Source: Verrucomicrobiota bacterium
GTDB lineage: Bacteria > Verrucomicrobiota > Verrucomicrobiia > Opitutales > Opitutaceae
DNA length: 64,000 nt
NCBI GenBank assembly: GCA_947471035.1
Contig: CANIWJ010000003.1
Location: 1-64,000, forward strand
Reading direction: 5' to 3'
Shown: positions 2,349-49,070 of the stretch, piece after piece
Numbering within the stretch: position 1 is the stretch's first letter
Layout of the letters: each line of letters starts with the position of its first letter
Made by a program: the position numbers and the translations under genes
The notes under the pieces: model-generated
Seen by the model: only the letters and a program-made list of their open reading frames with translations
Told to the model about the DNA's origin: nothing
Database searches by the model: none

Positions 2349-3125
2349 GTGAGCACTCCCGTCGTTCAGCTTCGCGACATCCGCAAAACATACCGCAACG
2401 GCGATCTCGAAGTGCACGCCGTGCGCGGCATCTCGCTCGATATTCGCACCGGCGATTTCATTGCCATCATGGGTGCCTCCGGCTCCGGGAAATCCACCCT
2501 CATGAATACCTTGGGCTGCCTCGACCGGCCTACTTCGGGCGAATACCTGCTGGACGGCGTCAATGTCGCCGACCTCGACCGAGCCGCCCGAGCCGACCTG
2601 CGTAATCAAAAACTCGGCTTCGTTTTCCAGGGTTTTAACCTGCTCGCCCGCACTTCGGCCCTCGAAAACGTCGAGCTCCCCATGCTCTACGCCCCGCGCC
2701 GCGTCTCCGGCGAGGAAATGAAACGCCGCGCCCTCGCCGCCCTTGAAATCGTCGGCCTCGGCAAACGCTTCGACCACTTGCCCTCCCAGCTCTCCGGCGG
2801 CCAGCAACAACGCGTCGCCATCGCCCGCGCCCTCGTAAACGAACCCCGCCTGCTGCTCGCCGACGAGCCCACCGGCAACCTCGACAGCAAAACCTCCGTC
2901 GAGGTCATGGGCGTTTTTCAACGCCTGAACGAACAGGGCATAACCATCGTGATGGTCACCCACGAGCTCGACGTCGCCAGTTACTGCAAACGCATTCTCG
3001 TGGTCCGCGACGGCTTGGTCGTGCGCGACGAACCCGTGCAAAACCGGATGATAGCCGCCGAGGAACTGGCCAAACTCCACGCCGCCGAAGCCCACGCCAA
3101 ACTCACCTCCACGCCTGCGGCGTGA
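2349..3125 (+). CDS. ABC transporter ATP-binding protein (MacB/LolD/DevA-like)
   Basis: Walker [10 protein letters not shown], signature [15 protein letters not shown], Walker [13 protein letters not shown]; GTG start. Confidence 0.9.
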
Positions 3126-3226
3126 AATGACGAATGCCTAATGACGAATGGGCAAAATCACCAACTAACCAATTACCATAACCCAGCTAGGATAATTAGG
3201 CATCCGTCATTCGACATTCGTCATTT
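3126..3226. repeat. family-A repeat element (imperfect palindrome built from AATGACGAATG units) between ABC ATPase and permease genes
   Basis: AATGACGAATG-CCT-AATGACGAATG ... CCGTCATTCG-A-CATTCGTCATT; arms ~27 bp, spacer ~50 bp. Confidence 0.7.
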
Positions 3227-3229
3227 TCC

Positions 3230-4438
3230 ATGCGTCTTCTCGCCACCACCATCATAGCCCTTCGCGCCCTGCGCCGGAACAAGCTCCGCTCCGCCCTCAC
3301 CGCCCTGGGCATCATCATCGGCGTGGCCGGCGTCATCGCCACCGTAGCCATCGGCAACGGTGCCAAGGTCCAGGTGGAAAACCAGATCGCCTCCCTCGGC
3401 CGCAACGTAGTCACCGTTTTCCCCGGCAGCTTCTCCACCGGCGGCGCGCGCGGCGGCTTTGGCTCCGCCTCCACCCTCACCATCGAGGACATCGACGCCA
3501 TCCGCCGCGACGTTGCCGACATCGCCGCCATTTCCCCTGAGGTCAGCGACCGCAATCAAGTCCTGGCCAACGGCCTAAATTGGAACACCCAGGTCCGCGG
3601 CGTCAGCCCAGAATACCTCAGTGTTCGCGCTTGGGATACCGAAACCGGCACCATGTTTGGCGACCAGGATCTGCGCTCTGCCGCCAAGGTCTGCGTCATC
3701 GGCACCACCATCGCCAAACAACTTTTCCCCAACTCCGACCCCCTCGGACAGACCATCCGCATCCGCAACATCCCCTTCATTGTGCGCGGCATTCTGGTGA
3801 GCAAAGGCTTCAACTTCTTCGGCCAGGATCAGGACGACACCATCATCGTGCCCTACACCACCCACATGCGCCGCCTCAACCGCCGCACCACGGTAAACAC
3901 CATTCTCATCGAAGCCGCCAACCCCGAGGTCATGCCGCGCATCCAGGAGGAAACCACCGACTTGCTCACCCAGCGGCGCCGCGGCCGCGAACCCGATTTT
4001 ACGGTGCGTAACCAACTCGAACTCGCCCAGACCGCCACCGCTACCGCCCGCGTTATGACTCTCCTCCTCGGGGCCATCGCCGGTGTCTCCCTCTTTGTCG
4101 GCGGTATCGGCATCATGAATATCATGCTCGTGTCCGTCACAGAGCGCACCCGCGAGATCGGCATCCGTCTCGCCATCGGGGCCCACGATCGCGACATCCG
4201 CGTGCAGTTTCTCATCGAAGCCATGGTGCTCAGTGTGCTCGGCGGTATCGCCGGCGTACTCCTCGGAACCGGCCTCTCTCAAGTGCTCTCCAAATTTACC
4301 GGTTGGTCCGTACTGGTCTCGACCAACGCCGTGCTCATCTCAGTCGGCATCTCAGCCTTTGTGGGCATCGTCTTTGGCTTTTACCCCGCACATAAAGCCG
4401 CTCAGCTTGACCCTATCGAAGCCCTTCGTTTCGAGTAG
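3230..4438 (+). CDS. ABC transporter permease, FtsX/MacB-type
   Basis: N-terminal TM helix, large periplasmic domain, C-terminal 3 TM helices with the FtsX-like pattern (IGIMNIMLVSVTERTREIGIRLAIGA). Confidence 0.9.
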   Translation: MRLLATTIIALRALRRNKLRSALTALGIIIGVAGVIATVAIGNGAKVQVENQIASLGRNVVTVFPGSFSTGGARGGFGSASTLTIEDIDAIRRDVADIAAISPEVSDRNQVLANGLNWNTQVRGVSPEYLSVRAWDTETGTMFGDQDLRSAAKVCVIGTTIAKQLFPNSDPLGQTIRIRNIPFIVRGILVSKGFNFFGQDQDDTIIVPYTTHMRRLNRRTTVNTILIEAANPEVMPRIQEETTDLLTQRRRGREPDFTVRNQLELAQTATATARVMTLLLGAIAGVSLFVGGIGIMNIMLVSVTERTREIGIRLAIGAHDRDIRVQFLIEAMVLSVLGGIAGVLLGTGLSQVLSKFTGWSVLVSTNAVLISVGISAFVGIVFGFYPAHKAAQLDPIEALRFE

Positions 4439-7619: not shown

Positions 7620-9689
7620 GTGAAGCCCGCCCCCGCCGCACGCCTCTTCTTTGTCTTCGCTTTCCTGTTCGTCGCCGTGCGCGCCGACTGGCTCGACGAC
7701 GTCGGCTACACCCGCCTGCTCCAAACCTATTCCTCCGGTGTACCCGCCTCGGTCGCGTCCGGCGTCAGTCAGATCGAGGCTCCCGACGGCGCAGCCAATT
7801 ACGCCGCCGATTCACCCGGAAAAAGCCCGACCTTAAAATCCGGTGCCTCGGGTGCAAACGGCCACGCCTCTACTGTAGCGGTTTACTACTATAGCTCTGC
7901 CTCCAGCGTTATCCCTGACACCTCAATTATCGACGCGTACAACGCCAACACTTGGCTCTACTCTGGCTTTCTAAATTATAACACAACTTCGGTCCCGCTC
8001 ACGGAGTCGCGCCGCATCCAAAACCACAGCTGGATCGCTCAGTTCGACCGCAACCAATATGCCGAATCCACGATCACCTCGGCTGTAGCAAACTACAACC
8101 AGCGCCTCGACTACGCCAGCGATCGCGACGGCTTCCTCGCCGTCGTCGGCACCAACAACGGCGCCAGCACCACCCTGCCCGACCTCATGGTCCAAGGGTA
8201 CCACAGCCTATCCGTCGGCCTTACCAGCGGCAACCACGCTGCCGGTCTCACCACCCACGACACCGCCGGCCGGATGAAACCCGACCTCGTCGCCTACGAA
8301 TCACTCACCAGTTTCGCCACCCCCCAGGTCTCCAGCGTCGCCGGCCTGCTCTCCGAAAAACTCCGTAACAACGCCTACTCTTCCGCACTCACCACCGCCG
8401 ACTACCCCCGCCTGACCAAAGCCCTCCTCCTCGCCGGTGCCACCAAGGACACTCTCGCCACCTGGTCCCGTGCCGACACCGCCAAACCCTACGACGCCAC
8501 CTACGGCGCAGGCGCGCTCAACACCCTCCTCTCCTACCGTATTCTGAGCGCCGGCCGCCAAACCGCCTCCGCCTCTTCCACTCTCGCCGAAACCGGCTGG
8601 GCCATTTCTACCGTGCGCAGCAGTACCTCCGCCTCCAGCCGAACCTACTTTTTCGACATCCCTGCCGCCACCACCGCCACCCGCTTCTCCGCCGCCCTCA
8701 CCTGGCATCGTAATCTAAGCTACCCTTTCATTTTTACCGGCACCTTCAGCACCAGCCTCCCCAACCTCGACCTCCGCCTCCACGCCGTCGCATCCGGCAC
8801 ATTCACCCTCGGCACCCAAATCGACGCCAGCCTCAGCCCCGTGGACAACGTCGAACACCTCTACCAAGCCAACCTTCCCCCCGGCCGCTACGCACTCCAA
8901 GTATCCTCCGCCGCCTCTACCGCCACCACCTACGCCCTCGCCTGGCGCACCTCGCCCACCGTCACCGTCGCAGCCACCGCCCCCACCGCCCGAGAAACCG
9001 ACCTCTCACCCGCCACCTTCACCCTCACCCGCACCGGCCCCACCACCTCCCCCCTGCTCATCCCGCTCACTTGGGGCGGCACCGCCGCCCCCGGAACCCA
9101 TTATCAAACCCCTCCCGCCACCGCGCTGATCCCCGCCGGCTCCGCCAGCACCACGCTGACCTTAACCCCCATCGCCGACGACCTCGCCCAAGGTGATCGC
9201 ACCCTCACCCTCACTGTCGTCCAGGACTTTTCCCTCTCCGTCGGCAGCTCCGCCACCGCCATCGCAACCCTCGAGGACAAACCCTACGACGCCTGGCGCT
9301 ACGCCCGCTTCACCTCCGATCAACTCGCCGACTCCACCGCCACCGGCCCCGACGCCGACCCCGACGCCGACGGCCTGCCCAACCTGCTCGAATACGCCTT
9401 TGGCCGATCCCCGCTCTCACCTGACGCCAACGACGCAATACCCGCCCCGAGCATAGACGCTAACGGCTACCTAAACCTGTCGTTTTTTCAGGCGTCCGAC
9501 CGCCCCGATCTCAGTTACCTCGTTGAATGGACCGACGACCTCACCGCCACCTGGCGCAGCGGCCCGGATTACACTACTGATGTTAACGCCGAAGCCCGTC
9601 CCACCGGTGAGCAAATTACCGTCAGCGCCGTGACACCTCTGGCCGATTCCCCCCGCCAATTCCTCCGCCTCCGGGTCACCCGTCAGTAA
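7620..9689 (+). CDS. secreted subtilisin-like (S8) serine peptidase-like protein with C-terminal extension
   Basis: Signal peptide MKPAPAARLFFVFAFLFVAVRA. Segments resemble S8 Asn/Ser regions (SGNHAAG ... LTSFATPQVSSVAGLL versus GTSMA(S/T)PHV(A/S)G.AAL). C-terminal DPDADGLPNLLEYAFG module; GTG start. Confidence 0.55.
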   Translation: MKPAPAARLFFVFAFLFVAVRADWLDDVGYTRLLQTYSSGVPASVASGVSQIEAPDGAANYAADSPGKSPTLKSGASGANGHASTVAVYYYSSASSVIPDTSIIDAYNANTWLYSGFLNYNTTSVPLTESRRIQNHSWIAQFDRNQYAESTITSAVANYNQRLDYASDRDGFLAVVGTNNGASTTLPDLMVQGYHSLSVGLTSGNHAAGLTTHDTAGRMKPDLVAYESLTSFATPQVSSVAGLLSEKLRNNAYSSALTTADYPRLTKALLLAGATKDTLATWSRADTAKPYDATYGAGALNTLLSYRILSAGRQTASASSTLAETGWAISTVRSSTSASSRTYFFDIPAATTATRFSAALTWHRNLSYPFIFTGTFSTSLPNLDLRLHAVASGTFTLGTQIDASLSPVDNVEHLYQANLPPGRYALQVSSAASTATTYALAWRTSPTVTVAATAPTARETDLSPATFTLTRTGPTTSPLLIPLTWGGTAAPGTHYQTPPATALIPAGSASTTLTLTPIADDLAQGDRTLTLTVVQDFSLSVGSSATAIATLEDKPYDAWRYARFTSDQLADSTATGPDADPDADGLPNLLEYAFGRSPLSPDANDAIPAPSIDANGYLNLSFFQASDRPDLSYLVEWTDDLTATWRSGPDYTTDVNAEARPTGEQITVSAVTPLADSPRQFLRLRVTRQ

Positions 9690-10841: not shown

Positions 10842-12451
10842 GGCCGTGAATCCCGCAACACCGGTCCGAGAAAGTCCAGCAGCTCCGTCGTCCGCACCGC
10901 CACCTGCCCCCGCGCCCGCGCCAGCGAGTCCGCCGCCATCCCGTGCCACACCACCCCGCGCGCCGCCGCCCCCAGCGCATCCTCCGGCGTTTGCGCCAAC
11001 AAACCGCCAATCAAACCCGCCAACACATCCCCGCTCCCGCCCCGCGCCAAAACCGGCCCGCCGAAAAAACTGTGGTAAACCGCTCCCTGCTCCCCACTCC
11101 TAGCGCCCCCAGCGCTACTCCCCTTAACTAGCTCTACCAACTTACTAGCTCTACTAGCTTCCCCGCCCCCCGCTCCCACCGTTTCAATCCGCGTCACCGG
11201 CCCCTTGCGCACTACCACCGCGCCCTCCGGCACTGCCTCTGCGATCCGCGCCCATTCGCCCGCATGAGGCGTCAGCACCCGCGCCGCGCTGCCCCGCGCC
11301 ACCACCTCCGGCCGCAAGGCATCCGCATCGATCACCAGCGGTCTCGGCGAGGCCGCTACGATCTCACCCGCCAACGCTAGCGTCTCCCGCTCGGTTCCCA
11401 TGCCCGGCCCCAGCACCACCGCCGTCGCCCGCCCGAACGCCTCGCGCACCAGCCCAAACCCTTCCAAGGCCAGCCCGCCCTCCGGCGTCTCTGGCAAGCC
11501 AAACCACATCGCCTCCGGCACCTGCGCGACAAACGCCGGCACCAACGATTCCGGCACCGCCGCCGTGACCAAGCCTGCCCCCGCCCGCAATGCAGCCAAG
11601 GTCGCCATCAACGCCGCCCCTGCATACCGCCGCGACCCCGCCACGATCAGTACCTGCCCAAACGTCCGCTTGTCACTCCTTGCCACCCGTAACGCTCTCA
11701 CCCTCTCCAAGACCCCCGCCCCCAGCCCCAAGTAACCTATTGGGTTACTTGGTAGCGGAAAACCGAGATCGAGGAAGCGCACCCGCCCGGCGTTTTCCAA
11801 AGTCAACAACGGCGATTTCACGCTGCCCGTCGCGTAGGTAAAATCCGCCCGAAACGCGTCCGCCGCATCCAGTCCGCTGGGCAAATCCACCGCCGCCCGA
11901 AGCCGGATCGGATATGCGTTAACCCGCGCCAGAACCGAGGCCACCACACCCTCCAACGGCGGCCTAAACTGAAACCCCAAAACCCCGTCCAAAACCATCT
12001 CATACCCTGCCTTCCAATCCCTCCCGTCCAAGCCCACTCGTCGAACTCCCCGCTCCCCGCCCCCTGCCGCAAGCTCCAAAGCCCGCCGCGTCAAAGGCCG
12101 CAATACCCGCTCGCCGAAAACCAACAACACATCCACCGCTATCCCCGGATACCGTGCGCGCAGTTCGGCTGCCGCCAGCAAAGCGTCGCCCGCGTTGTGC
12201 CCCTTGCCGACCAAAACCAGCACGCGGGCATCCGAGGGAAATTCGCCTAGCTCCGCATAATCCCGCAACACCCCGTCGGCCACCGCCCGACCCGCCACCC
12301 GCATCGCCGCCCACTCGCGCGCTTCGTCCCCCGCGAAATACTCCGCCTCAAAGACCCGCGCCTCGTCACAACTCAAAATCGGATAAGTTCCAGTGATCAC
12401 CGCGACAAAATGACGAATTCTCACTTCACATAGCGAGCACCACCGGTGCAT
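10838..12451 (-). CDS. nnr: bifunctional NAD(P)H-hydrate repair enzyme Nnr (epimerase/ADP-dependent dehydratase)
   Basis: YjeF-N LVLVGKGHNAGDALLAA and YjeF-C GGSGDVLAGLIGGLLAQ motifs. Contains an in-frame copy of repeat family B. The 5' end overlaps a family-A repeat, so the true start may be a downstream GTG. Confidence 0.8.
   Translation of the reverse strand: MHRWCSLCEVRIRHFVAVITGTYPILSCDEARVFEAEYFAGDEAREWAAMRVAGRAVADGVLRDYAELGEFPSDARVLVLVGKGHNAGDALLAAAELRARYPGIAVDVLLVFGERVLRPLTRRALELAAGGGERGVRRVGLDGRDWKAGYEMVLDGVLGFQFRPPLEGVVASVLARVNAYPIRLRAAVDLPSGLDAADAFRADFTYATGSVKSPLLTLENAGRVRFLDLGFPLPSNPIGYLGLGAGVLERVRALRVARSDKRTFGQVLIVAGSRRYAGAALMATLAALRAGAGLVTAAVPESLVPAFVAQVPEAMWFGLPETPEGGLALEGFGLVREAFGRATAVVLGPGMGTERETLALAGEIVAASPRPLVIDADALRPEVVARGSAARVLTPHAGEWARIAEAVPEGAVVVRKGPVTRIETVGAGGGEASRASKLVELVKGSSAGGARSGEQGAVYHSFFGGPVLARGGSGDVLAGLIGGLLAQTPEDALGAAARGVVWHGMAADSLARARGQVAVRTTELLDFLGPVLRDSRP
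11118..11165. repeat. family-B repeat (copy 3) inserted in-frame inside nnr
   Basis: CTCCCCTTAACTAGCTCTACCAACTTACTAGCTCTACTAGCTTCCCC lies within the uninterrupted nnr ORF. Confidence 0.7.
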
Positions 12452-24011: not shown

Positions 24012-24086
24012 GCGGTAACCCTCCGCAGCCGCTTCCGCCACCCAAACGCCCCAATCGGGCACGCAGCTACTGCTTTGCCCAACGCC

Positions 24087-25346
24087 ATGAAATCCCGTCT
24101 GTCGCTCACCTTACTGCTCGCCGTTTGGTCGCCCGTTGTAGCCCAAGAGCCACCCATCCCGGCCTCACCAACGGCCTTAACCCTCGAACAGGTCTTTAAC
24201 GCCATTCGAAACACCCATCCAGCGCTCGTCGCCGCCCGCTCGACTACCGCCGCCGCCGCCGCACGCAGCGATCAGGAAAAAGCCTGGATGGCCCCCAAAG
24301 TCGGGCTAAGCCTCAACCGGGAAGACACCAACCTCGTCGATTACCATGAGCTCGAAGTCATGGTTTCCCAAGAGTTGCCCTTAAGCGGCCGCCCTCGTCT
24401 CCGTGCCCAAGCCGCCGATGCCGAGGCCGGCGTCGCCTCCGCCCAAGCCCGCCGCCGCGAGTGGATGCTACTCAACCAAGTCCGCAACGCCTACACCCGC
24501 CTCGCCGCCGCTGACGCCCGCCTCGAAGCCAACACTCGTCTCCGCGCAAACCTCGACCAATTCCGCCCGCTCGCCCGCCAAGCCTACGAAGTCGGACGCC
24601 GCCCCCAGTCCGAGCTCCTCGCCCTCGAAACCGAACTCGCCAAACTCGACGCCGAACTCGCCGAACTTACCGGCATGCGCGCCCAGGAAGCCGCTATGCT
24701 CAACGCCCTTCTGCTTCGTCCCGCTTCGGCGGCGATACCCCTCTTGGCACTACCCGAGCCAACCGCTCCTTCACTTGACCTATCCGAAGCCGTAAACCGC
24801 GCCCGCGCCCTCAGTCCCGAAATAGCCGTCGCACGTCGCGAAACCGACGCCGCCCGCGCCAAACTCGCCGTCGTTCAAAAAAACCGCGCCATCGACCCCG
24901 AACTCTCCGTCACCGCCCGCCGCATGAAAAACTCCGGCGATGTCGTTACCAGCTACGATACTGCCATCTCCTTTTCCATTCCTTGGGCCAATCCGGGGCG
25001 CACCCGTTCAGAACTCGCCGAGGCCCGTAGTCGCGTAACCGCCGCCCGGGCCGAGGTCGAGGCCGGCGAAGCCGAAATCGCCGGCATGGTCGCCACCTCC
25101 CACACCCGAGCCACCACCACTTACGCGCAGATAAAACGCTACACGGAAGAAATCCTTCCCCTCACCCGCGCCAGCACCGAAGCCGCCCGCCGCGATTACG
25201 AGGCCGGCCGCGAACCCCTCATCGCCGTGCTCGCCGCCCAGCGCATGACGCTGGAAGCCGAGCTTAAACTCGTAGAACTCCGCGTCTACCACGCCCTCGC
25301 TTCCGCCGAACTTTGCTTCCTCTCCGGCCAAGACCTCCAACCATGA
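24087..25346 (+). CDS. czcC: TolC-family outer-membrane efflux protein (CzcC/CusC-like)
   Basis: Signal peptide, two OEP repeats with Ala/Leu-rich coiled coils; ATG at 24087 chosen over the TTG of the track. Confidence 0.85.
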   Translation: MKSRLSLTLLLAVWSPVVAQEPPIPASPTALTLEQVFNAIRNTHPALVAARSTTAAAAARSDQEKAWMAPKVGLSLNREDTNLVDYHELEVMVSQELPLSGRPRLRAQAADAEAGVASAQARRREWMLLNQVRNAYTRLAAADARLEANTRLRANLDQFRPLARQAYEVGRRPQSELLALETELAKLDAELAELTGMRAQEAAMLNALLLRPASAAIPLLALPEPTAPSLDLSEAVNRARALSPEIAVARRETDAARAKLAVVQKNRAIDPELSVTARRMKNSGDVVTSYDTAISFSIPWANPGRTRSELAEARSRVTAARAEVEAGEAEIAGMVATSHTRATTTYAQIKRYTEEILPLTRASTEAARRDYEAGREPLIAVLAAQRMTLEAELKLVELRVYHALASAELCFLSGQDLQP

Positions 25347-26989
25347 AAGCACGTACCTTTTTCACCCTCGTCCTTGTTGCCGGTCTCGCCGCCGCCGCCG
25401 GCTACCAAGCCGCGCTTCACACCATGAAGCCGACCCCGGTTCAAACCGCGACCGAAGCCCGGAAAATAAAGTTTTACCAGTCGCCGATGCATCCGTGGAT
25501 CAAGTCCGATCAACCCGGCAAGTGCACGATCTGCGGCATGACGCTCATGCCTGTTTACGAGGGCGAGGCGGGTGTCTCCACCGACCCCAGCCTAGTCACC
25601 CTCGCGGCCTCCTCCGCCTCCGTCATCGGCGTGCAGACCGCCGAGATTCGTCGCGCTCCGCTGGTGCGCACCCTTCGTGTGGCCGGCATCATCGACGACG
25701 ACGAAAGCCGTCATCGCTATCTATCCGCCTACACCGACGCCCGTATCGAAAAACTTTACGTTCACACCACAGGCGTCGAAGTCGCCGCCGGCGAACCGCT
25801 CGCCGTGCTTTACAGCCCCGAACTGCTCACCGCCCGCCAAGAGTTTCACTCCCTTGCCCGTACCAACTCGACTCTACTCGGTGCCGCGCGCGAAAAACTT
25901 ATTCGCCTCGGCCTCCTGGAACAACAAATCGACGCCCTCGCCCTTGCCTCCGAAGTCAGCCGCGAAACCGAAATTCTGGCCCCGCTCTCCGGCACCGTGG
26001 TTGCCCGCAGCGAAACCGCCTACGCCGGTGGCTACGTGAAGGCCGGCGACATGCTCTTCGCCATCGGGGACTTTAAACAAATGTGGTTCGTTTTCGACGC
26101 CTACGAACCCGACCTGCCCGCGCTACGGATCGGCCAAACCGTGGAAATCTCCGTCCCCTCGCTCGCGGGCCAAACCCTCAGCGCGCCCATCACCTTCATC
26201 GACCCCAACCTCAACGAAATGACCCGCACCGCCAAGGTCCGCGTCGTGCTTGAAAACACCGACCGCCGCCTCCGCCACCGGATAACCGCCACCGGTCGCG
26301 TCACCCTCGAAACTCCCGAAACCCTCATCGCCCCGCGTAGCGCCGTGCTTCACACCCAGCGCGAACCCATGGCTTACGTCGAACTCGGCGACCGCACCTA
26401 CGAACCCAGATCGCTCAAACTGGGTCGCACCGGCGACGACGCAGTCGAAATTCTCGACGGTCTCGCCCCCGGCGAAAAAGTCGTCACCCAAGGCGCGCTG
26501 CTGATCGACGGCCAGGCCCAACTCGCCCACAGCGCCAACGGCAACGATTCGCCTCCCCCCGCGCCCCACGACCACGCTGCGCCCGCCCCCACCGCAATAC
26601 CCTCCAACAACCAGCCACTCTTCCAAACATCCGCCGAGGCCGCCGCCGCGCTCTCCGCCGACGACCTCGCCGCCTACGCCAAACTCCTGCCCGCTCTGAC
26701 CGCCGCCGTGCACCAATCCGGCGAGGCCCACGAAACCCTGATGCCGCTCGCCGCCGCCCTCGTGCCGGGTCCCGATCTCACCACTGCCCGCGCCCCGTTC
26801 GAGGCGTTTAGCAGCGCCGTCGCCGATCTCGCCCGCGCCTTGCCGGTGGAGCAACGCGGGGGCCTGCGAATTTTTCAATGCCCCATGGCCCCGGTCACGC
26901 GCAAGGCGCGCTGGCTCCAGCACGACGACGCCGTGCGAAACCCCTTTTTCGGTTCCGCCATGCTGGAGTGCGGCAACGAGCTCAAGTAA
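25343..26989 (+). CDS. czcB: RND efflux periplasmic adaptor (CzcB/CusB-like) with N- and C-terminal metal-binding extensions
   Basis: N-terminal YQSPMHPWIKSDQPGKCTICGMTL (CusB/SilB-type YxxPMHP...CxxCGM motif); membrane-fusion core; C-terminal FQCPMAP...NPFFGSAMLECG module; start ATG overlaps the czcC stop (ATGA). Confidence 0.85.
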   Translation: MKARTFFTLVLVAGLAAAAGYQAALHTMKPTPVQTATEARKIKFYQSPMHPWIKSDQPGKCTICGMTLMPVYEGEAGVSTDPSLVTLAASSASVIGVQTAEIRRAPLVRTLRVAGIIDDDESRHRYLSAYTDARIEKLYVHTTGVEVAAGEPLAVLYSPELLTARQEFHSLARTNSTLLGAAREKLIRLGLLEQQIDALALASEVSRETEILAPLSGTVVARSETAYAGGYVKAGDMLFAIGDFKQMWFVFDAYEPDLPALRIGQTVEISVPSLAGQTLSAPITFIDPNLNEMTRTAKVRVVLENTDRRLRHRITATGRVTLETPETLIAPRSAVLHTQREPMAYVELGDRTYEPRSLKLGRTGDDAVEILDGLAPGEKVVTQGALLIDGQAQLAHSANGNDSPPPAPHDHAAPAPTAIPSNNQPLFQTSAEAAAALSADDLAAYAKLLPALTAAVHQSGEAHETLMPLAAALVPGPDLTTARAPFEAFSSAVADLARALPVEQRGGLRIFQCPMAPVTRKARWLQHDDAVRNPFFGSAMLECGNELK

Positions 26990-26995
26990 CGCGCC

Positions 26996-29900
26996 ATGAT
27001 CGCCTTCATCATCCGCTGGTCGCTGCACAACCGCTTCATCGTCCTCGCCGCCTTCGTCGCACTCTGCGCCTGGGGCGTGGTCGCGCTGAAACGCGTGCCG
27101 GTGGACGCCATTCCCGATCTTTCCGAGAATCAAGTGATCGTTTACGCCGACTTGCCCGGCCGCTCGCCCCAGGAAGTCGAAGATCAGATCACCTACCCGC
27201 TCTCAGTCTCCCTCCAAGGCTTGGCCGGCGTAAAAACCGTGCGCGCCACGTCCATGTTCGGCTTCTCGTTTCTCACCGTTATTTTCGACGACAAAATCGA
27301 AAACTACTTCGCCCGGACGCGGGTGCTGGAGCGTCTGAATTCCTTAGGAGAACTTCTGCCGTCCGCCGTCACCGCACGCCTCGGGCCCGACGCCACCGGC
27401 CTCGGCTGGGTTTATCAATATTACCTAAAGGACGCCTCCGGGAAACAAGACCTCGGCTCCCTGCGCGCCCTGCAAGATACGTTTATCCGTTATCAACTCG
27501 CCGCCACCCCCGGCGTCGCCGAGGTCGCCAGCATCGGTGGTTTCGTCCGCCAGTATCAAATCGAGGTTTCGGCCCTGAAACTAAAACAGTTCGGCCTCTC
27601 CCTCGGCGAAGTGATTGACGCCGTCGGGGCCAGCAACGCCAACGTCGGCGGCAAAACCCTGGAGGAAAACGGCGCCGAATATATCGTGCGCGGCGTCGGC
27701 TTGGTAACCTCACCCGCCGATCTGGAAAAGATCCCGCTCATGCCGCGCGGTGGTGTGCCGCTCACCCTGCGCGATGTCGCCACCGTGCAGATCGGCGGCG
27801 AGTTCCGGCGCGGAGCGCTCGATGTGGATGGCCGCGCCGTGGTCGGCGGCATCGTCGTGATGCGCTACGGCGAAAATGCCTATCAAGTCATCCAAGACGT
27901 AAAGGCTCGCCTAGCCACCCTCGCCCCCGGCCTGCCCGCCGGCGTCACGGTCGCGCCATTTTACGACCGGGCCGACCTGATCCAGCGCGCGATCGATACG
28001 CTCAAGCACGCGCTCACCGAAGAGATTATTCTGGTAACGCTCGCCCACATCCTCTTCCTGTTTCACTTCCGCAGCATCCTGATCGTCACGCTGCCGCTGC
28101 CGGCGTCGATCCTGGTTTCGTTTATCCTCATGGATCGTTTCGGCATTCCGTCGAACATCATGTCGCTGACCGGCATCGCCATCTCCATCGGCGTGCTAGT
28201 CGATGCCGGTATCGTCATGACCGAAAACGTCATTCGCCACTGCGAACGCGCCGAGGAAGAGCTCCGCCGGCGACTCACCCCACCGGAGGTTTTTCAACAC
28301 ACGCTGGAAGCCGCCACCCAAGTCGGGCGTCCGATGTTTTTCTCGATGATGATCATCATCCTGGCCTTCGTTCCGGTGTTCCTGCTCTCGGGTCAGGAGG
28401 GAAAGCTCTTTCACCCGCTCGCCTACACCAAGAGTTTCGCCCTACTCGGCGCGGTCATTCTAGCCATCACCGCCGTGCCGGTTTTCTGCACTTACCTCGT
28501 TCGCGGTCCCTTCAAGCCCGAGAGCGAAAACTGGCTGATGAAGTTTCTCCTCCTCGGCTACGAGCCCTTGCTCGATTGGGCGCTCACCCATCGCAAAACC
28601 GTCATGTCCCTCGCCGCCACGCTATTGGTCATCACGTCCGTCATCGCCTTCGGCCTCCCTCAGCCGATTTCGTCATTCGTCATTCGTCATTCGTCATTGC
28701 CGGAGCGTTTCACGCGAGGGTTCGGCTCCGAGTTCATGCCCACGCTTGAGGAAGGCTCGCTGCTCTTCATGCCTGTGTTGCTGCCGTCCACCTCGCTCAC
28801 CGAAGTAAACCGCATCATGAGCTGGCAGGACAAGGTCATCGCCTCGCACCCCGAGGTCGTCTCCGTGGCCGGAAAACTCGGCCGCGCCGACACCGCCACC
28901 GACCCCGCTCCGGTCGAGATGATCGAGACCACCATCCTGCTCAAACCCGCCTCCGAGTGGCGACCCGGTGTCACCAAGGCAAAAATCATCTCGGAGCTTT
29001 CGGAACGGCTCACCCAAGTGCCCGGCTACGTGCCCGGTTTTCTCCAGCCGATCGAGAATCGCATTCTGATGACGAGCACGGGCATTCGCGCCCAAGTCGG
29101 CGTAAAGATTTTCGGCGACAACATCGACGCGCTCCAGGCCAAAGCATTCGAGATTGAGCGCGTGATCGCAGGTATTTCCGGCGCGACTGGCGTCGCACCC
29201 TCGCGTGCCCAGGGCAAACCCTACCTCGAAATCACGCCGGATCGCGAAGCCCTGCGCCGCTACGGCCTGCGCGTGGCCGACGTGTTTTCCTACGTCGAAA
29301 CCGGCATCGGCGGCGCCGTCGCCACGACTACGCTAAAAGGCCGTGAACGCTGGCCGGTGCAGGTCCGGCTGGAGCGAGCTGACCGCGACGATCTCGATAA
29401 AATCGGCGACTTATTAATCCCCACCCCCTCCGGGCCGTTCGTTCCGTTGCGCCAGATCGCGGCCATCAAACGAGTTGTCGGCGCCAGTGAGATTCAGAGC
29501 GAAAATGGACGTCTCCGCGTCTTCGTCCAGGCCAACGTCCAAAACCGCGACCTCGGCGGCTTCGTGGACGAAATTAAAGCCAAAGTAACCCAATCGGTTA
29601 CTTTGGATCCGGGCATGACCATCGAGTATTCCGGCCAATACGAACACCAGATCCGTGCCCGCCAGACCCTCGCCTACGTGTTCCCGGCGGTGATCGTGAT
29701 CATCTTTATCCTGCTGGTAATGACGTTTCGCAGCGTTCCCGAGGCTGCGCATGTTATCCTCGCCGTGCCCTTTGCCCTCACCGGTGGCGTGATTCTCCAA
29801 TCCATCCTCGGCTTCAATTTTAGCGTGGCAGTCTGGGTCGGATACATCGCGCTTTTCGGCACCGCTATCCAGACCGGCGTGGTAATGGTAGTGTATCTGG

Positions 29901-30214
29901 AGGAAGCGGTAGTTTCCCTCCGCAAGCAACTCGGCCGGGAGCTGACCCGCAAGGAACTGGTCGATGCGATCAAAGTCGGCGCGCGCCTCCGCTTGCGCCC
30001 CAAGGTGATGACGGTCGCCACCACCGTCGCCTCGCTGCTGCCGATATTCTGGAGCGCGCGGACTGGAGTAGAAGTGATGCAACCCATCGCCGCCCCCGTA
30101 GTCGGCGGCATGCTATCGTCACTGCTGCATATCCTTCTAGTCACCCCGGTCATTTTCGCCTGGCTGCACGAACGTCGCCTCCCGAAGGAATCGAACAACC
30201 CAGCTTCTGTGTAA
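26996..30214 (+). CDS. czcA: heavy-metal efflux RND transporter (CzcA/CusA family)
   Basis: 1072 aa, 12-TM RND architecture with HME-type conserved segments; contains a heptamer-repeat insertion at 28670-28697. Confidence 0.95.
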   Translation: MIAFIIRWSLHNRFIVLAAFVALCAWGVVALKRVPVDAIPDLSENQVIVYADLPGRSPQEVEDQITYPLSVSLQGLAGVKTVRATSMFGFSFLTVIFDDKIENYFARTRVLERLNSLGELLPSAVTARLGPDATGLGWVYQYYLKDASGKQDLGSLRALQDTFIRYQLAATPGVAEVASIGGFVRQYQIEVSALKLKQFGLSLGEVIDAVGASNANVGGKTLEENGAEYIVRGVGLVTSPADLEKIPLMPRGGVPLTLRDVATVQIGGEFRRGALDVDGRAVVGGIVVMRYGENAYQVIQDVKARLATLAPGLPAGVTVAPFYDRADLIQRAIDTLKHALTEEIILVTLAHILFLFHFRSILIVTLPLPASILVSFILMDRFGIPSNIMSLTGIAISIGVLVDAGIVMTENVIRHCERAEEELRRRLTPPEVFQHTLEAATQVGRPMFFSMMIIILAFVPVFLLSGQEGKLFHPLAYTKSFALLGAVILAITAVPVFCTYLVRGPFKPESENWLMKFLLLGYEPLLDWALTHRKTVMSLAATLLVITSVIAFGLPQPISSFVIRHSSLPERFTRGFGSEFMPTLEEGSLLFMPVLLPSTSLTEVNRIMSWQDKVIASHPEVVSVAGKLGRADTATDPAPVEMIETTILLKPASEWRPGVTKAKIISELSERLTQVPGYVPGFLQPIENRILMTSTGIRAQVGVKIFGDNIDALQAKAFEIERVIAGISGATGVAPSRAQGKPYLEITPDREALRRYGLRVADVFSYVETGIGGAVATTTLKGRERWPVQVRLERADRDDLDKIGDLLIPTPSGPFVPLRQIAAIKRVVGASEIQSENGRLRVFVQANVQNRDLGGFVDEIKAKVTQSVTLDPGMTIEYSGQYEHQIRARQTLAYVFPAVIVIIFILLVMTFRSVPEAAHVILAVPFALTGGVILQSILGFNFSVAVWVGYIALFGTAIQTGVVMVVYLEEAVVSLRKQLGRELTRKELVDAIKVGARLRLRPKVMTVATTVASLLPIFWSARTGVEVMQPIAAPVVGGMLSSLLHILLVTPVIFAWLHERRLPKESNNPASV
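28670..28697. repeat. four perfect tandem copies of heptamer TCGTCAT (reverse of ATGACGA, family A) inside czcA
   Basis: TCGTCAT x4 read directly; encodes the SFVIRHSS segment of the periplasmic loop. Confidence 0.85.
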
Positions 30215-30280: not shown

Positions 30281-32647
30281 TTAACTCTTACGCTCAGCGC
30301 TAGCTGCGGTCGGCGACTTGGCTTCAAGCTCTTCGGGTTTCACGGTGAAGCTGCGCCCGGTTAACTTCTCCAGCAGGCTGATGCCAAAGAATCCATTCAT
30401 CAGATCATTGCCGCCGGCGCCGCCCGCGCCACCGCCGCCGATGACGAGGTTCTCGGGGATGAGCTTGAGCGTGCCGGTGGCGATTTTTTCTACCACGCGA
30501 ATCTGGCCGAACACATCCTTCCCCATCGCATCGACTTCGAGGCGGTAGGCTTCGGCGGTAGATTGGCCCTTCGCCAGGATAACTTCTGCCTCAGCATTAC
30601 CGATCTTGGCCGTGGCTTCGGACTGGGCCTCAGCGGTCACCTTGGTCGCTTCAGCTTGGGCGGCAGCGCGGAGCTTGATCGCTTCGGATTCACCGGTGGC
30701 CTGAAGAATGGCGGCGACCTTGGAACCTTCCGCTTCCTTCACTTTACCTTCGGCCAAATTCTTCTGGATTTCCACGTTACGCTCGGACTCTACGACCTTA
30801 GGCTGCATGGCCGCCTGAGCGGTCGCATTTTCCAAGGCGCGGCGCTCGTCCTGCGCCTCTTTCTGAGTGGCGTAGGTTTTCTTCTCTTGTTCGGCAATCT
30901 GACGGTCCGTGACGGTTTTGGTCAGCTCGGCTGGCAGCACCACGTCAGCGATCAGCGTATCCTTGGAATCGATGTGGTGAACGCGGAGAACGCCGTCGAT
31001 GTGGGTTTTGGCTTTTTCCTGAAGCTGTTTGCGCTCGGTGTAGAGATCGAGGGCTTTGATGTATTGGGATGCGTTGCGGAAGTGAGAGCTGATGGCCGGC
31101 TCCAACACCTGGGAAATCATGTTTTTAACGGACCCGAGGTTGGCGATCACCTTGGGGGCGTTTTTCATCGGGATGTGGATGATGACGCTTACGTCCATGT
31201 TGACGTTGAACGCATCGGCGGTGCGCAAAGTGATCGTTTTGAGATTCGAATCGAGCTCGTGAGCGCTGGAACGGGTGTCGGCCCAGTTGAGCAGGATTTG
31301 CGTCGTAGGAACGATATCGACCTTGAGTATCTTCGTATTGAGCGGGTGCTTGCCGGGCTGAAGCGGGTCGGCCCAGATGCCCTTGTTTCCATTGGCCACG
31401 ATTTTGGCGTTCACCGCATCGTCCGTGAGGTCAGCACCGTCGGGACCGACGTAACTGGTAACCACGCCGCAGAAGCCGATATCGACGCGAATCATCGGCG
31501 CTTTTTCTACTGACGCGAACCAGGGGTTAATCGCATAGTTACCGGCGCGTAGAACGGGGATCTGGAGGCCCTTTTGGCCTCCGGAAGCGAGGAACGCAGC
31601 CGGATCCTGGAAGTTATTATGGGTGCCCAGGGGCAGCTCTTCGGCGGCGATTTTTGAGGAATCGACGATGGGTTTACCCTCAAGGATGGTAACAATGCCG
31701 ACTTGGTCCGCCTCAATGTTGGTCCAGTCCACCACGCTGATAACTTTGAAGAGGGCGGGATTAATCCGGTAGCGGCCCGGCATTAGCACATCGAGTTGGC
31801 GGCCCTTTTCCCCGCCGTTGTTAATAAAGGCTTCGCCGTCGTAAAAACTGTTATGCCCAGGAACCTTCAGGGCAAGGAGTCGGCCTTCAGGGATACGCGC
31901 ACCGTCGGTCGCCTCGACCAGCCCGATCTGACCGCCCTTGATTTCGGTAATCGGGCGTTTCTCGATACGGAAAAGAATGGTGTTAATACGATAGAAACCC
32001 GGGGTCAGGAAGGCGATCTGCGGTCCTTTTTGTCCACCGTTGTTGATGAAGGCTTGCGCGTCTTGAAAGCTATCACAGGCGACGGGCGATCCAAAGTTTC
32101 CGCCAGCGCGGGTCACCGGTTGGCCGGCGATGGCCTCGACGTAGCCGACCTCGTTGTCGTCGATCATGATCGCATCCACGATCTCCACCTCGAATAGAGC
32201 CGGATTAATCTTATATTCACCCTCAGGCAGTATGGCGAGCTGGGGGCCCTTTTCGCCGCCGTTGCGCAAGAAGGCTTCTCCATCTTGAAACAGATCACAT
32301 TCGATACTTTTGGCCATATAGTTACCCGACGGAATGGGGGCACCGGTGATCGCGCGAACCACACCGACCTGATTGGACGGGATGACCAAAAACCGATGTT
32401 TGGAGGTGCGGAAAATGAACGGGATCAGAAAGTGGAAACCAGGGCCAAGCACACGAGCCTGCACGCCCACTTCACTGCTAAGTGCGACTGTGCGGCCATC
32501 GGGCATTTGACGACCAAACCAACGGCGTTCAAGCGTCACGATTTCATCACCACCAGCGATCGTGATCGAGTTATAGATAACGACCAACAGGGGAACACCC
32601 CAAAGGACGTAGACGATATTCTGGACGATGAAATCAAGGATAGGCAT
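30281..32647 (-). CDS. flotillin-like SPFH/band-7 family protein with five N-terminal tandem partial-SPFH repeats
   Basis: N-terminal TM helix; five ~70-75-aa repeats each containing VG.V...G.P..G and NGG.KG.Q...L.PG.Y.INP.LF motifs; SPFH core; Glu/Ala-rich coiled coil (AEAQSEATAKIGNAEAEV); flotillin-type C-terminus (GGGGAGGAGGNDLMNGF). Confidence 0.8.
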   Translation of the reverse strand: MPILDFIVQNIVYVLWGVPLLVVIYNSITIAGGDEIVTLERRWFGRQMPDGRTVALSSEVGVQARVLGPGFHFLIPFIFRTSKHRFLVIPSNQVGVVRAITGAPIPSGNYMAKSIECDLFQDGEAFLRNGGEKGPQLAILPEGEYKINPALFEVEIVDAIMIDDNEVGYVEAIAGQPVTRAGGNFGSPVACDSFQDAQAFINNGGQKGPQIAFLTPGFYRINTILFRIEKRPITEIKGGQIGLVEATDGARIPEGRLLALKVPGHNSFYDGEAFINNGGEKGRQLDVLMPGRYRINPALFKVISVVDWTNIEADQVGIVTILEGKPIVDSSKIAAEELPLGTHNNFQDPAAFLASGGQKGLQIPVLRAGNYAINPWFASVEKAPMIRVDIGFCGVVTSYVGPDGADLTDDAVNAKIVANGNKGIWADPLQPGKHPLNTKILKVDIVPTTQILLNWADTRSSAHELDSNLKTITLRTADAFNVNMDVSVIIHIPMKNAPKVIANLGSVKNMISQVLEPAISSHFRNASQYIKALDLYTERKQLQEKAKTHIDGVLRVHHIDSKDTLIADVVLPAELTKTVTDRQIAEQEKKTYATQKEAQDERRALENATAQAAMQPKVVESERNVEIQKNLAEGKVKEAEGSKVAAILQATGESEAIKLRAAAQAEATKVTAEAQSEATAKIGNAEAEVILAKGQSTAEAYRLEVDAMGKDVFGQIRVVEKIATGTLKLIPENLVIGGGGAGGAGGNDLMNGFFGISLLEKLTGRSFTVKPEELEAKSPTAASAERKS

Positions 32648-43491: not shown

Positions 43492-43577
43492 GCCTCCGTG
43501 GTGGAATGGCAGACACACGAGACTTAAAATCTTTTGTCCGAAAGGGCGTGCCGGTTCGACTCCGGCCGGGGGCACCA
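43492..43577 (+). tRNA. tRNA-Leu (anticodon UAA)
   Basis: Manual fold: acceptor GCCUCCG/CGGGGGC, anticodon loop CUUAAAA (UAA), long variable arm, T-arm GCCGG-UUCGACU-CCGGC, encoded CCA. Confidence 0.8.
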
Positions 43578-47379: not shown

Positions 47380-48042
47380 CTAACGCGGATTTTCAAAAAC
47401 TGCGGCGCGTTCGGCGGGCGTGAGTTCGCGCCAGGCCCCGGGCGTGGCGAGCAAGTCGAGGGTCGCGAGCGTGACGCGGCCGATGCGCATGCGCAGCAAA
47501 CGCAAGGTGGGGTGGCCGATGGCGGCGGTCATGCGACGGACCTGGCGGTTTTTCCCCTCGTGCAAGGCGAGCGAGAGCCAGCTATCGGGGACGTTTTTAC
47601 GAAAACGAACGGGCGGATCGCGGGGAGGCAGGCGGGCGATCTCGGGCTCCGGAATACCTCGCACGCGGACCGGGGCGCAGGCGTGGTCGGGCAGGCGCAC
47701 GCCGGCCGCGAGCCGGGCGAGGGCGGCGACGTCGGGGATACGTTCCACCTGCACCCAGTATTCGCGTTCGTGGGCGTGGCGGGGATCGAGCAGGCGAGTG
47801 TTGACACCAGATTCGTCGGATAGGAGGAGCAGGCCCTCGCTGTCGGCGTCGAGCCGCCCGAGCGGATAAACCCGGGGCGGCAGCTTGGGAACGAGATCGG
47901 CCAAAGTCCGCCATTTCGAGCCGGGCTCGGGGGTGAACTGGGAGAGCACGCCATAGGGTTTGTGAAGAGCGATGAGCACGATGAGCAAAGCCAGTATTGA
48001 CGAATGCCCAATGTCCAATGACCAATGTGCAGGCTGGCACAC
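47380..48042 (-). CDS. rluE: RluE/RsuA-family rRNA pseudouridine synthase
   Basis: LHKPYGVLSQF...LGRLDADSEGLLLLSD catalytic-Asp motif; 5' end overlaps a family-A repeat, so the true start may be a downstream GTG/TTG. Confidence 0.75.
   Translation of the reverse strand: MCQPAHWSLDIGHSSILALLIVLIALHKPYGVLSQFTPEPGSKWRTLADLVPKLPPRVYPLGRLDADSEGLLLLSDESGVNTRLLDPRHAHEREYWVQVERIPDVAALARLAAGVRLPDHACAPVRVRGIPEPEIARLPPRDPPVRFRKNVPDSWLSLALHEGKNRQVRRMTAAIGHPTLRLLRMRIGRVTLATLDLLATPGAWRELTPAERAAVFENPR
47997..48030. repeat. family-A repeat copy (TGACGAATGCCCAATGTCCAATGACCAATG) at the 5' end of rluE
   Basis: Direct 11-bp AATGNCNAATG-type units; near-identical in its first 16 bp to the left arm of the 3126 element. 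Confidence 0.65.
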
Positions 48043-48074: not shown

Positions 48075-49070
48075 ATGCGCGCCATCCAACTTATCGCAGT
48101 TAACCAACTCGAAATCCGTGAAGTTGCCGATCCGGTTCCCATGCCGGGCGAGGCGGTGGTTAAAGTCGCGGCGGCGGCGCTCAACCACCGTGATGTGTGG
48201 ATCAAACTAGGCCAGTATGCGGGGCTGAAATTCCCCTCGATCCCGGGCTCGGACGGGGTGGGCGAAGTGATGGCGGTGGGCACGGCGGCGGACGCGGCCT
48301 GGGTGGGAAAACGGGTGGTGATTAATCCCTCGTTCGGCTGGGGAGATCGCCAGGATACGCAGGGCGCTGATTTTTCGATTTTGGGCCTGCCGCGCGAAGG
48401 CACCCTGGCGGAGCGGTTGGCGGTGCCGGTGACGCAACTGGCCCTGGCGCCGGAGCACTTGAGTGACGAGGCGGCGGCGGCGCTGCCGCTGGCCGGGCTC
48501 ACAGCATGGCGGGCGGTGATGAGCCGTGCGCGTTTGCAAGCGGGAGAGCGTATATTGATCGGGGGCATTGGCGGCGGCACGGCCTTGTTTGCGTTGCAGT
48601 TCGCGGTGGCGGCGGGCGCGGAAGTGTGGGTGACCTCATCGCGGCCGGAAAAAATCGCCCGCGCGATGGCGCTGGGGGCGCGAGGCGGCTTTGACTACGC
48701 CAAACCGGGCTGGGCGGAGGCGGCGCAAGCGGCGGCGGGCGGACTTTTTGACGTGATTATCGACAGCGCCGGGGGCAACGGCTTCGAGTCCTTGGTAGAT
48801 CTGGCTGCACCGGGCGGGCGGATCGTCTTTTTCGGCGCTACACGGGGAAACCCAAACGTCCTGCCGATGCGGAAGATTTTCTGGCGTCAACTCAGTCTGC
48901 TTGGCTCCACCATGGGCAGCCCGGCGGATTGGACAGAGATGCTGGCGGCCGTCACCCGGCATCGCATCGAGCCGGTGGTGAGCGAGGTATTTTCCTTTGC
49001 CGAGGCCGCGCGGGCTTTTGAGCAGATGGAGCGCGGCGAGCAGTTTGGAAAAATCGTACTTAAACCGTGA
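48075..49070 (+). CDS. MDR-family zinc-type alcohol dehydrogenase/quinone oxidoreductase
   Basis: GroES-like N-domain and Rossmann GGIGGGTALFALQFA. Confidence 0.8.
   Translation: MRAIQLIAVNQLEIREVADPVPMPGEAVVKVAAAALNHRDVWIKLGQYAGLKFPSIPGSDGVGEVMAVGTAADAAWVGKRVVINPSFGWGDRQDTQGADFSILGLPREGTLAERLAVPVTQLALAPEHLSDEAAAALPLAGLTAWRAVMSRARLQAGERILIGGIGGGTALFALQFAVAAGAEVWVTSSRPEKIARAMALGARGGFDYAKPGWAEAAQAAAGGLFDVIIDSAGGNGFESLVDLAAPGGRIVFFGATRGNPNVLPMRKIFWRQLSLLGSTMGSPADWTEMLAAVTRHRIEPVVSEVFSFAEAARAFEQMERGEQFGKIVLKP

Follow-up and report, generated by a model that had tools for sequence, protein, structure and literature searches.

A translated heptanucleotide array of fixed length in the hypervariable linker of a CusA-like pump from an Opitutaceae bacterium

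Introduction

According to literature cited in two reports, heptanucleotide repeats are the most abundant long-unit class of simple sequence repeats (SSRs) in many bacteria, and polymerase slippage has been proposed as their cause (PMC4679880, PMC4692102). The described heptamer families include TAACTGA in Beggiatoaceae, Cyanobacteria and Bacteroidetes, GGGAATC in Xanthomonas, GGGGAYT in Nostoc and the short tandemly repeated repetitive (STRR) sequences of cyanobacteria, all of them essentially intergenic and under-represented in coding sequence (PMC4679880, PMC4692102). Phase-variable heptanucleotide tracts are also known, in which 8–38 units are present and their number differs between strains (PMC2651432). 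In this study, we analysed the first 64,000 nt of contig CANIWJ010000003.1 (assembly GCA_947471035.1, a Verrucomicrobiota bacterium of the Opitutaceae), hereafter the window, in which four perfect copies of the heptamer TCGTCAT are found inside a cusA-like gene for a heavy-metal-efflux pump. We conclude, with a probability of about 0.68, that the protein linker encoded at this site is permissive, was built and rewritten by such repeats, and exists as alleles shuffled by recombination.

Like the described long-unit SSRs, the TCGTCAY unit forms short head-to-tail 7-nt arrays, is found again at numerous loci and in numerous phyla, and is often arranged in inverted hairpin pairs. The modal size of its arrays is about three to four units, and a four-unit preference has been reported for GGGAATC (PMC4692102); one orientation is free of stop codons, as has been noted for TAACTGA (PMC4679880). 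Unlike the described families, the cusA array is in frame inside a conserved gene, and several different units occupy the same position in different alleles. The tracts of the Haemophilus influenzae hmw1A and hmw2A genes and of TonB-dependent receptor genes are alike in having a frame-shifting heptanucleotide unit; compared with these phase-variable loci, however, the cusA tract has four units, shows no copy variation, is decayed in relatives and belongs to an inner-membrane pump of an environmental host.

Rickettsia palindromic elements (RPEs) are repeats that lie as in-frame insertions within protein-coding genes. They resemble four TCGTCAY elements that we found in other genomes (loci L043, L082, L083 and L115, described below), in that repeat DNA is translated as an extra peptide at a permissive surface or loop of a conserved protein, but the cusA tract differs from RPEs in being a single direct array that has no palindromic partner, is ancient and occurs alongside non-homologous arrays. 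With Escherichia coli CusA (PDB 3K07 and 3T51), the pump of the CusCBA system, the window pump has in common full-length homology, the three-methionine site, and upstream adaptor and outer-membrane factor (OMF) genes, whereas the 19-aa linker after transmembrane helix 7 (TM7) sets it apart. The tract lacks the copy variation and the tract length of phase-variable loci, and also the second arm of palindromic elements. The situation is unusual for a member of a known repeat class: the array is translated, its length does not vary, and it is one among several arrays at the same codons of a conserved gene.

A perfect heptamer array in the pump gene

The features that concern the array are as follows.

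28670–28697, forward strand: perfect TCGTCAT ×4, by direct reading; self-match score at lag 7, 21/21
28661–28717, forward strand: clade-specific hypervariable linker, Q556–R574, 19 aa, from alignments to PDB CusA and 120 homologues
26996–30214, forward strand: intact gene for a cusA-like heavy-metal-efflux (HME) pump of the resistance-nodulation-division (RND) type, 1072 aa, from family-model and CusA matches

Including one further T at either end, the periodic array extends over 30 nt or 10 codons (28669–28698; 4.3 copies of period 7 with 100% matches in Tandem Repeats Finder) and encodes the peptide SSFVIRHSSL (S559–L568). A lag scan of the 64-kb window at periods of 4–12 detected no second four-unit tract at ≥90% self-identity, and the block-shuffled sequences used as a control contained none at all. 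The lag-7 score of the tract was reached by 0 of 3100 other 28-nt windows of cusA. The 14-mer TCGTCATTCGTCAT, representing two units, occurred seven times in the window at up to two mismatches, compared with 0.44 expected, and all four matches outside the tract fell inside an intergenic element at 3126–3226. The heptamer array is beyond chance. As the preliminary description of this DNA had stated, the four copies are exact and in frame within an RND pump gene, and a change in copy number, here by one or two units, would frameshift cusA, the 7-nt unit not being divisible by three. This coding and in-frame location is unlike the intergenic setting that is typical, though not strictly defining, of the described heptamer families.

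No (RTGACGA)n partner was detected within 150–200 nt of the tract, and no significant inverted repeat involves it. The local RNA fold was no better than that of shuffled sequences (z=+0.49), and no Rfam family was placed at the tract. Programmed ribosomal frameshifting was ruled out by reading of the sequence, in which the tract has no X XXY YYZ slippery heptamer. A direct repeat, TTCGGC, brackets the linker at 28652–28657 and 28721–28726, encoding A-FG-LP and G-FG-SEF, respectively; this pair could be a coincidence or the trace of a duplication or insertion behind the linker.

Position of the linker and its spread among homologues

The predicted product of the open reading frame (ORF) at 26996–30214 belongs to the CusA/CzcA family of HME-RND pumps and is clearly closer to CusA than to ZneA: the TIGR00914 model matched at 1054 bits (cutoff 701.45), and E. 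coli CusA aligned full-length over residues 1–1063 at E=7e-261, while the ZneA match was weaker at E=1e-158. Alignment to the CusA structures placed the segment in a variable loop between TM7 and the first periplasmic domain. The linker extends from the end of TM7 (AFGLP) to the start of periplasmic subdomain PC1 (GFGSEFMP) and adds approximately 15–21 residues between TM7 and GGEFLP of E. coli CusA, in which the site has about four residues (WPLN-K). The tract, just after the membrane, ends 24 residues before M592, the equivalent of CusA M573. In the AlphaFold2 model, TM7 spans residues 533–552 and a short helix spans 556–565, but confidence is low here (mean predicted local distance difference test score of 62), and the model gives a rough placement only.

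The segment had been thought to be an extra one, not seen in CzcA/CusA homologues. This holds for E. coli CusA, from which it is absent, but not for the nearer relatives, as a linker of 16–20 aa was present at the site in 120/120 of the closest homologues. These are Opitutaceae proteins with 79–91% identity, the best of which are from Rariglobus, Nibricoccus, Lacunisphaera and strain TAV5. The sequences flanking the linker are nearly invariant among the 120 homologues, while the linker itself is hypervariable. The linker appears to be a tolerated, structurally permissive spacer. We infer that the SSFVIRHSS peptide serves as a spacer without the role of a functional motif, its sequence being set by the DNA repeat and not by selection on protein or codons.

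The array is old and always has four units

We compared orthologue DNA from 14 alleles (loci L001–L010 and L131–L134). TCGTCAT ×4 was found in L001, L003 and L004 exactly as in the window. The DNA identity between the window gene and L001 is 82.5%, and L003 and L004, both on JGI contigs, are approximately 96% identical to L001, so that the perfect arrays represent two lineages at about 82% identity. Seven further orthologues, at 77–83% DNA identity, contain decayed arrays of four units with the same linker length of 19 aa:

L007: TCGTCAC TTGTCAC TCGTTAC TCGTCAC
L008: TCGTCAC TCGCCAC TCGTCAC TTGTCGC
L009: TCGTCAC TCATCAC TCGTCAC TCACCAC
L010, L006, L005 and L002: more degraded four-unit arrays

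No indel was present in the TCGTCAY-type arrays of 11/11 alleles (four perfect, including that of the window, and seven decayed), which always have four units. Copy-number variants were also sought in a metagenome collection with a frame-independent pattern (two or more units, 14–26 nt, then the GFGSEFMP codons), which catches any allele with at least two units; two loci were recovered, both with four units, and no other length. Since the copy number is fixed and the array is common to diverged orthologues, the tract is old and its length is fixed, and the data therefore give no support to either phase variation or a recent insertion. Both of the proposals made in the preliminary description, a phase-variation tract and an in-frame insertion of a mobile repeat, the latter at least as a recent event, are accordingly not upheld. 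It had also been reasoned there that exactly four copies in all related genomes, within a conserved segment, would point to ancestral sequence; the count is indeed always four, but the linker is hypervariable rather than conserved.

Truncated or frameshifted alleles of the TCGTCAY type were not found: when proteins were searched with a query that stops at the tract, the matches were all short CusA fragments of other linker types. Three short CusA ORFs from other lineages and with other linker types (P0121, P0126 and P0127, the last on a 111-kb contig) lose the frame or meet a stop codon inside the linker. Errors of assembly may account for them, or they may be genuine pseudogenes that arose by slippage in heptamer-type linkers.

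Other heptamers occupy the same codons

The four remaining orthologues carry different linkers at the same position:

L132: ...VSQLSTLNPQLAA...; TCTCAAC ×3 and CCTCAAC
L133: CTCTCAG CTCTAAG CCCTCAG CTCTCAG
L134: RFVTSRLSPEASRYLT, a short linker of 16 aa; CCTCTCG CCTCTCG CCTGAAG CCTCTCG
L131: RALNEKLPPSISAHTG, aperiodic, with a lag-7 score of 9/21

A lone TTCGTCAC unit stands in front of the L134 array. In 13 of the 14 orthologue genes, the lag-7 self-match of the linker was 14–21 of 21, a score that none of the approximately 3100 other 28-nt windows of each gene matched or exceeded, and no signal was detected at the linker at any other lag. The same tendency was detected at the protein level: 30 of 121 linkers agreed at eight or more of ten residues with the peptide that some perfect heptamer array would encode, compared with none of 600 random segments of these proteins. 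The linkers represent at least five families of heptamer unit, namely, TCGTCAY, CTCTCAR, GCCTCTC, CGTCTCT and TCCCGCC. A target of a diversity-generating retroelement was ruled out on the inference that the differences between alleles are replacements of whole arrays and not adenine-directed substitutions.

The peptide appears to follow the DNA repeat

The substitutions that distinguish related arrays affect whole sets of units. Position 7 of the unit is T in all four units of the window and the L001–L005 group and C in all four units of L007–L010; in consecutive units it falls on codon positions 1, 2, 3 and 1, giving F/L, I/T, H/H and L/L. Similarly, L132 and L133 differ by A/G in three of their units, each time at another codon position. 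The codons of the tract are poor, with its ten-codon window ranking sixth-lowest of 1063 in the gene and TCA accounting for 5% of serine codons. The peptide appears to be dictated by the DNA repeat, not the reverse. Such parallel, unit-wide changes can result from turnover of units by slippage (concerted evolution) or from a context-dependent hotspot of mutation, for example deamination in a methylated motif.

Linker alleles are probably exchanged by recombination

We constructed a neighbour-joining tree of the gene with the linker masked. Linker types were scattered on this tree, incongruent with the rest of the gene: TCGTCAY-type linkers appeared at six or more separate places, and the SQLSTLNPQL type was also recurrent. 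The sister of the window gene, P0002, has a linker that is short and aperiodic. L131, sister of the window gene, has no TCGTCAY array, and its site is not empty but is filled by a different 16-aa linker. How this can arise is seen from L133 and L134 (P0045/P0047), which do not differ at all (100% identity) in the first 1647 nt and are approximately 93% identical downstream, while the linker of about 50 nt is entirely different. These two genes form a mosaic pair, and the linker marks the recombination junction between their parts. The junction implies that linker types act as alleles moved by homologous recombination, and an independent origin is therefore not needed for each occurrence.

The heptamer family in the window and in other genomes

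Three other sites in the window had been grouped with the cusA array in one repeat family:

3126–3226, no strand assigned: intergenic 'family A' hairpin element, about 100 nt, each of its two inverted arms made of about four heptamer units (AATGACG / AATGYCK)
12410–12416, reverse strand: single TCGTCAT unit, AAATGACGAATT, too short for assignment to a family
48003–48028, forward strand: imperfect heptamer array AATGCCC AATGTCC AATGACC AATGT, with family resemblance (AATGNCC units)

The kinship is borne out at 3126–3226, the arms of which contain AATGACG, the reverse complement of the cusA unit, but it is weak for the single unit at 12410–12416 and amounts to a resemblance at 48003–48028. The arms of the 3126–3226 element read AATGACG AATGCCT AATGACG AATGGG ... 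CATCCG TCATTCG ACATTCG TCATT. The predicted RNA fold is stable (-30.2 kcal/mol, z=-4.18, with 0 of 200 shuffles as stable), and the element fills the gap between two co-directional ORFs, from the stop codon of 2349–3125 to the start of 3230–4438. This hairpin could serve to terminate transcription or to stabilise mRNA, or could be an element resembling repetitive extragenic palindromes. The array at 48003–48028 lies about 45 nt upstream of the ORF at 48075–49070, and its AATGACC unit corresponds, on the opposite strand, to TTGGTCA, the STRR unit of cyanobacteria. In L001 and L004, which also have the perfect TCGTCAT ×4 array, a CATTGGA ×2.9 array of the AATGTCC family is located in the short cusB–cusA spacer (2955–2974 and 9136–9155, respectively).

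To describe the family more widely, we scanned for (TCGTCAY)×3 in one genome per species and examined at least 120 loci (L011–L130; 819 kb). Arrays of three or more units were detected in at least 120 species genomes of at least seven phyla. A rough taxonomy of 80 of the matches listed gave Verrucomicrobiota (29), Chloroflexota (12), Acidobacteriota (8), Planctomycetota (6), Bacteroidota and allies (6), Proteobacteria, Myxococcota and Desulfobacterota together (6), Cyanobacteria (5), and unclassified or other bacteria (8). No cusA copy was among the matches listed, nor was the window's own genome. The 129 tracts in these matches had three units in 67 cases, four in 40, five in nine, six in seven and nine or more in six. 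Within 150 nt, 44 of these 129 tracts have an (RTGACGA)n partner upstream and one has a partner downstream, compared with none for a control motif; the hairpin order is thus nearly always (RTGACGA)n–loop–(TCGTCAY)n, in about one-third of the tracts listed. Perfect arrays in the 819 kb were predominantly of period 7, with 188 arrays, including 59 that were not of the seed unit, against at most 13 for each of the other periods scanned (4–12).

The reverse strand of the TCGTCAY unit contains TGA in every frame, and only the TCGTCAY orientation can therefore be translated. Four elements were found in frame in conserved genes:

L043 (a metagenome-assembled genome of Pedosphaera): Ser/Thr kinase, the Pkinase domain running uninterrupted across the element
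L115: HA2 domain of an HrpB helicase
L082: polysaccharide flippase
L083: FtsX permease

The peptides of these elements are of the type RMTNDE...HSSFVIRHSS. In the searchable literature, we found no paper on the TCGTCAY/AATGACG unit or its peptide, and a literature search on heptamer repeats in Verrucomicrobia was likewise without result. The TCGTCAY family appears to be undescribed.

The pump gene in its operon

Two genes upstream belong to the same operon as the pump gene:

25313–26989, forward strand: cusB-like membrane-fusion (periplasmic adaptor) gene, matching NCBIfam CusB, CzcB and RND_mfp
24075–25346, forward strand: TolC/OMF-like outer-membrane factor gene, with NCBIfam TolC-family matches that were all below curated cutoffs

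The methionine triad M592/M642/M692 aligns with M573/M623/M672 of CusA, the Cu(I)/Ag(I) site, and all three residues were invariant in an alignment of 66 sequences. Judging from the intact ORF, the invariant triad, and the cusB and OMF genes upstream, the pump looks functional.

The GC skew of the window is strongly negative (-0.1 to -0.4) up to approximately 30 kb and slightly positive over 30000–64000, with the minimum of the cumulative skew where cusA ends and the convergent ORF 30281–32647 on the reverse strand begins. This switch is likely due to coding-strand composition and the change in gene orientation, the alternative being a replication landmark. A tRNA gene at 43492–43574 was the sole Rfam match in the window.

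Discussion

The best explanation of the tract is that it is an old in-frame heptanucleotide array, a long-unit SSR of STRR-like character, which forms part of a clade-specific linker in the CusA copper/silver pump of the Opitutaceae. Under this explanation, 7-nt replication slippage on pyrimidine-rich sequence would have created the linker and would occasionally make it anew. Only array lengths that keep the frame would survive, leaving the count at four; point substitution would then cause arrays to decay into an ordinary-looking linker peptide, and homologous recombination would exchange the resulting alleles.

Several observations weigh against this explanation. The window and L001 share the perfect array without a single difference, yet 40% of the codons for the same amino acid differ between the two genes. 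The longest run of identical codons in the gene is the tract itself (11 codons, residues 557–567), for which the a-priori probability is about 0.01, although identical runs of ten codons occur elsewhere. This identity is unexplained by neutral decay and is only suggestive of nucleotide-level constraint, biased homogenization or a small conversion patch. In addition, the commonest 16-aa linker, the RAVNARLPDSIARHTS type, with a lag-7 score of 9/21 in L131, shows no periodicity, so that a heptamer origin of all linkers is an extrapolation; this linker resembles decayed SRLPPPASRL-type linkers, to which it may be linked. The lengths of the linker types (16, 19 and 20 aa) differ by amounts that are not multiples of 7 nt, and slippage alone therefore cannot interconvert them. 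Finally, the periodicity at the DNA level is drawn from 14 orthologue alleles.

Beyond the explanation by slippage, decay and exchange, the linker between TM7 and PC1 might be a hotspot at which heptanucleotide arrays are repeatedly born, homogenized and replaced, so that coding sequence is made de novo and is still being rewritten. We regard this extension as tentative and rather doubtful. The same process would spread (AATGACG)n and (TCGTCAT)n arrays and their hairpins through at least seven phyla, and would occasionally place them in frame in conserved genes.

An origin from outside the gene, in which the tract is the remnant of a mobile, heptamer-armed hairpin of 'family A' that was inserted in frame in ancient times, in the manner of RPEs, and later lost one arm, is unlikely in our view. 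In its favour, the cusA unit is that of the 3126–3226 hairpin, the array has the sole stop-free orientation, kindred elements lie in frame in the L043, L115, L082 and L083 genes, and 44 of the 129 tracts in the matches listed have an upstream partner, against none for the control motif. The cusA tract itself, however, has neither an inverted partner within 150–200 nt nor a fold better than shuffles (z=+0.49), and its presence in orthologues at 77–83% DNA identity makes any insertion ancient. Moreover, one mobile family leaves the quite different units at the same site (CTCTCAR and CCTCTCG) unexplained, and the mobility of the TCGTCAY family is itself only presumed.

A phase-variable contingency tract, at which slipped-strand mispairing would switch cusA on and off by frameshift within populations, is still less probable, and we consider it very unlikely. 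In its favour, the array is perfect, its unit is not a multiple of three, and it has persisted through DNA divergence of about 17%; turnover of units on evolutionary time scales is suggested by the parallel unit-wide substitutions, and the P0121, P0126 and P0127 fragments break the frame inside the linker. These fragments, however, have other linker types and come from error-prone short contigs, and decay of the arrays in most relatives indicates that their perfection is not maintained. The tract has four units, compared with 8–38 in the documented, strain-variable heptanucleotide tracts (PMC2651432), and the number was four in all 11 alleles and at both loci of the metagenome search. A metal-efflux pump is also an atypical target for the phase variation that is familiar from surface antigens.

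It is highly improbable that the tract acts as a nucleic-acid or translational signal, either as the site of a heptamer-binding protein or as a run of rare codons that pauses translation after TM7 for membrane insertion or folding. The nucleotide identity of the tract between diverged lineages would fit such a role, as would its place directly after TM7 among the windows of lowest codon adaptation in the gene, and the discussion of one report describes the binding of cold-shock proteins to heptamer repeats (PMC4679880). Most orthologues, on the other hand, have decayed or wholly different linkers and are still intact pumps, neither a predicted RNA structure nor an Rfam family was detected at the tract, and both the binding and the pausing are putative.

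The effect on the pump is probably minor, given the apparent tolerance of the linker as a spacer. The wider interest lies in the repeats, which have been regarded as essentially intergenic; at the cusA locus such arrays are translated, and one fixed position of the pump is filled by an array of approximately four units, the heptamer differing between alleles, with at least three to five kinds. Peptides of the 'SSFVIRHSS' type in other proteins of Verrucomicrobiota, Planctomycetota and other bacteria should accordingly be annotated with caution, as they are derived from repeats. If the linker is indeed a hotspot, this would point to an active mechanism that generates or mobilizes heptamers, beyond passive slippage. 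The locus offers a compact natural system in which to study how 7-nt slippage or mobilization creates and overwrites coding sequence, how the constraints of the reading frame fix the length of an array, and how recombination spreads such alleles.

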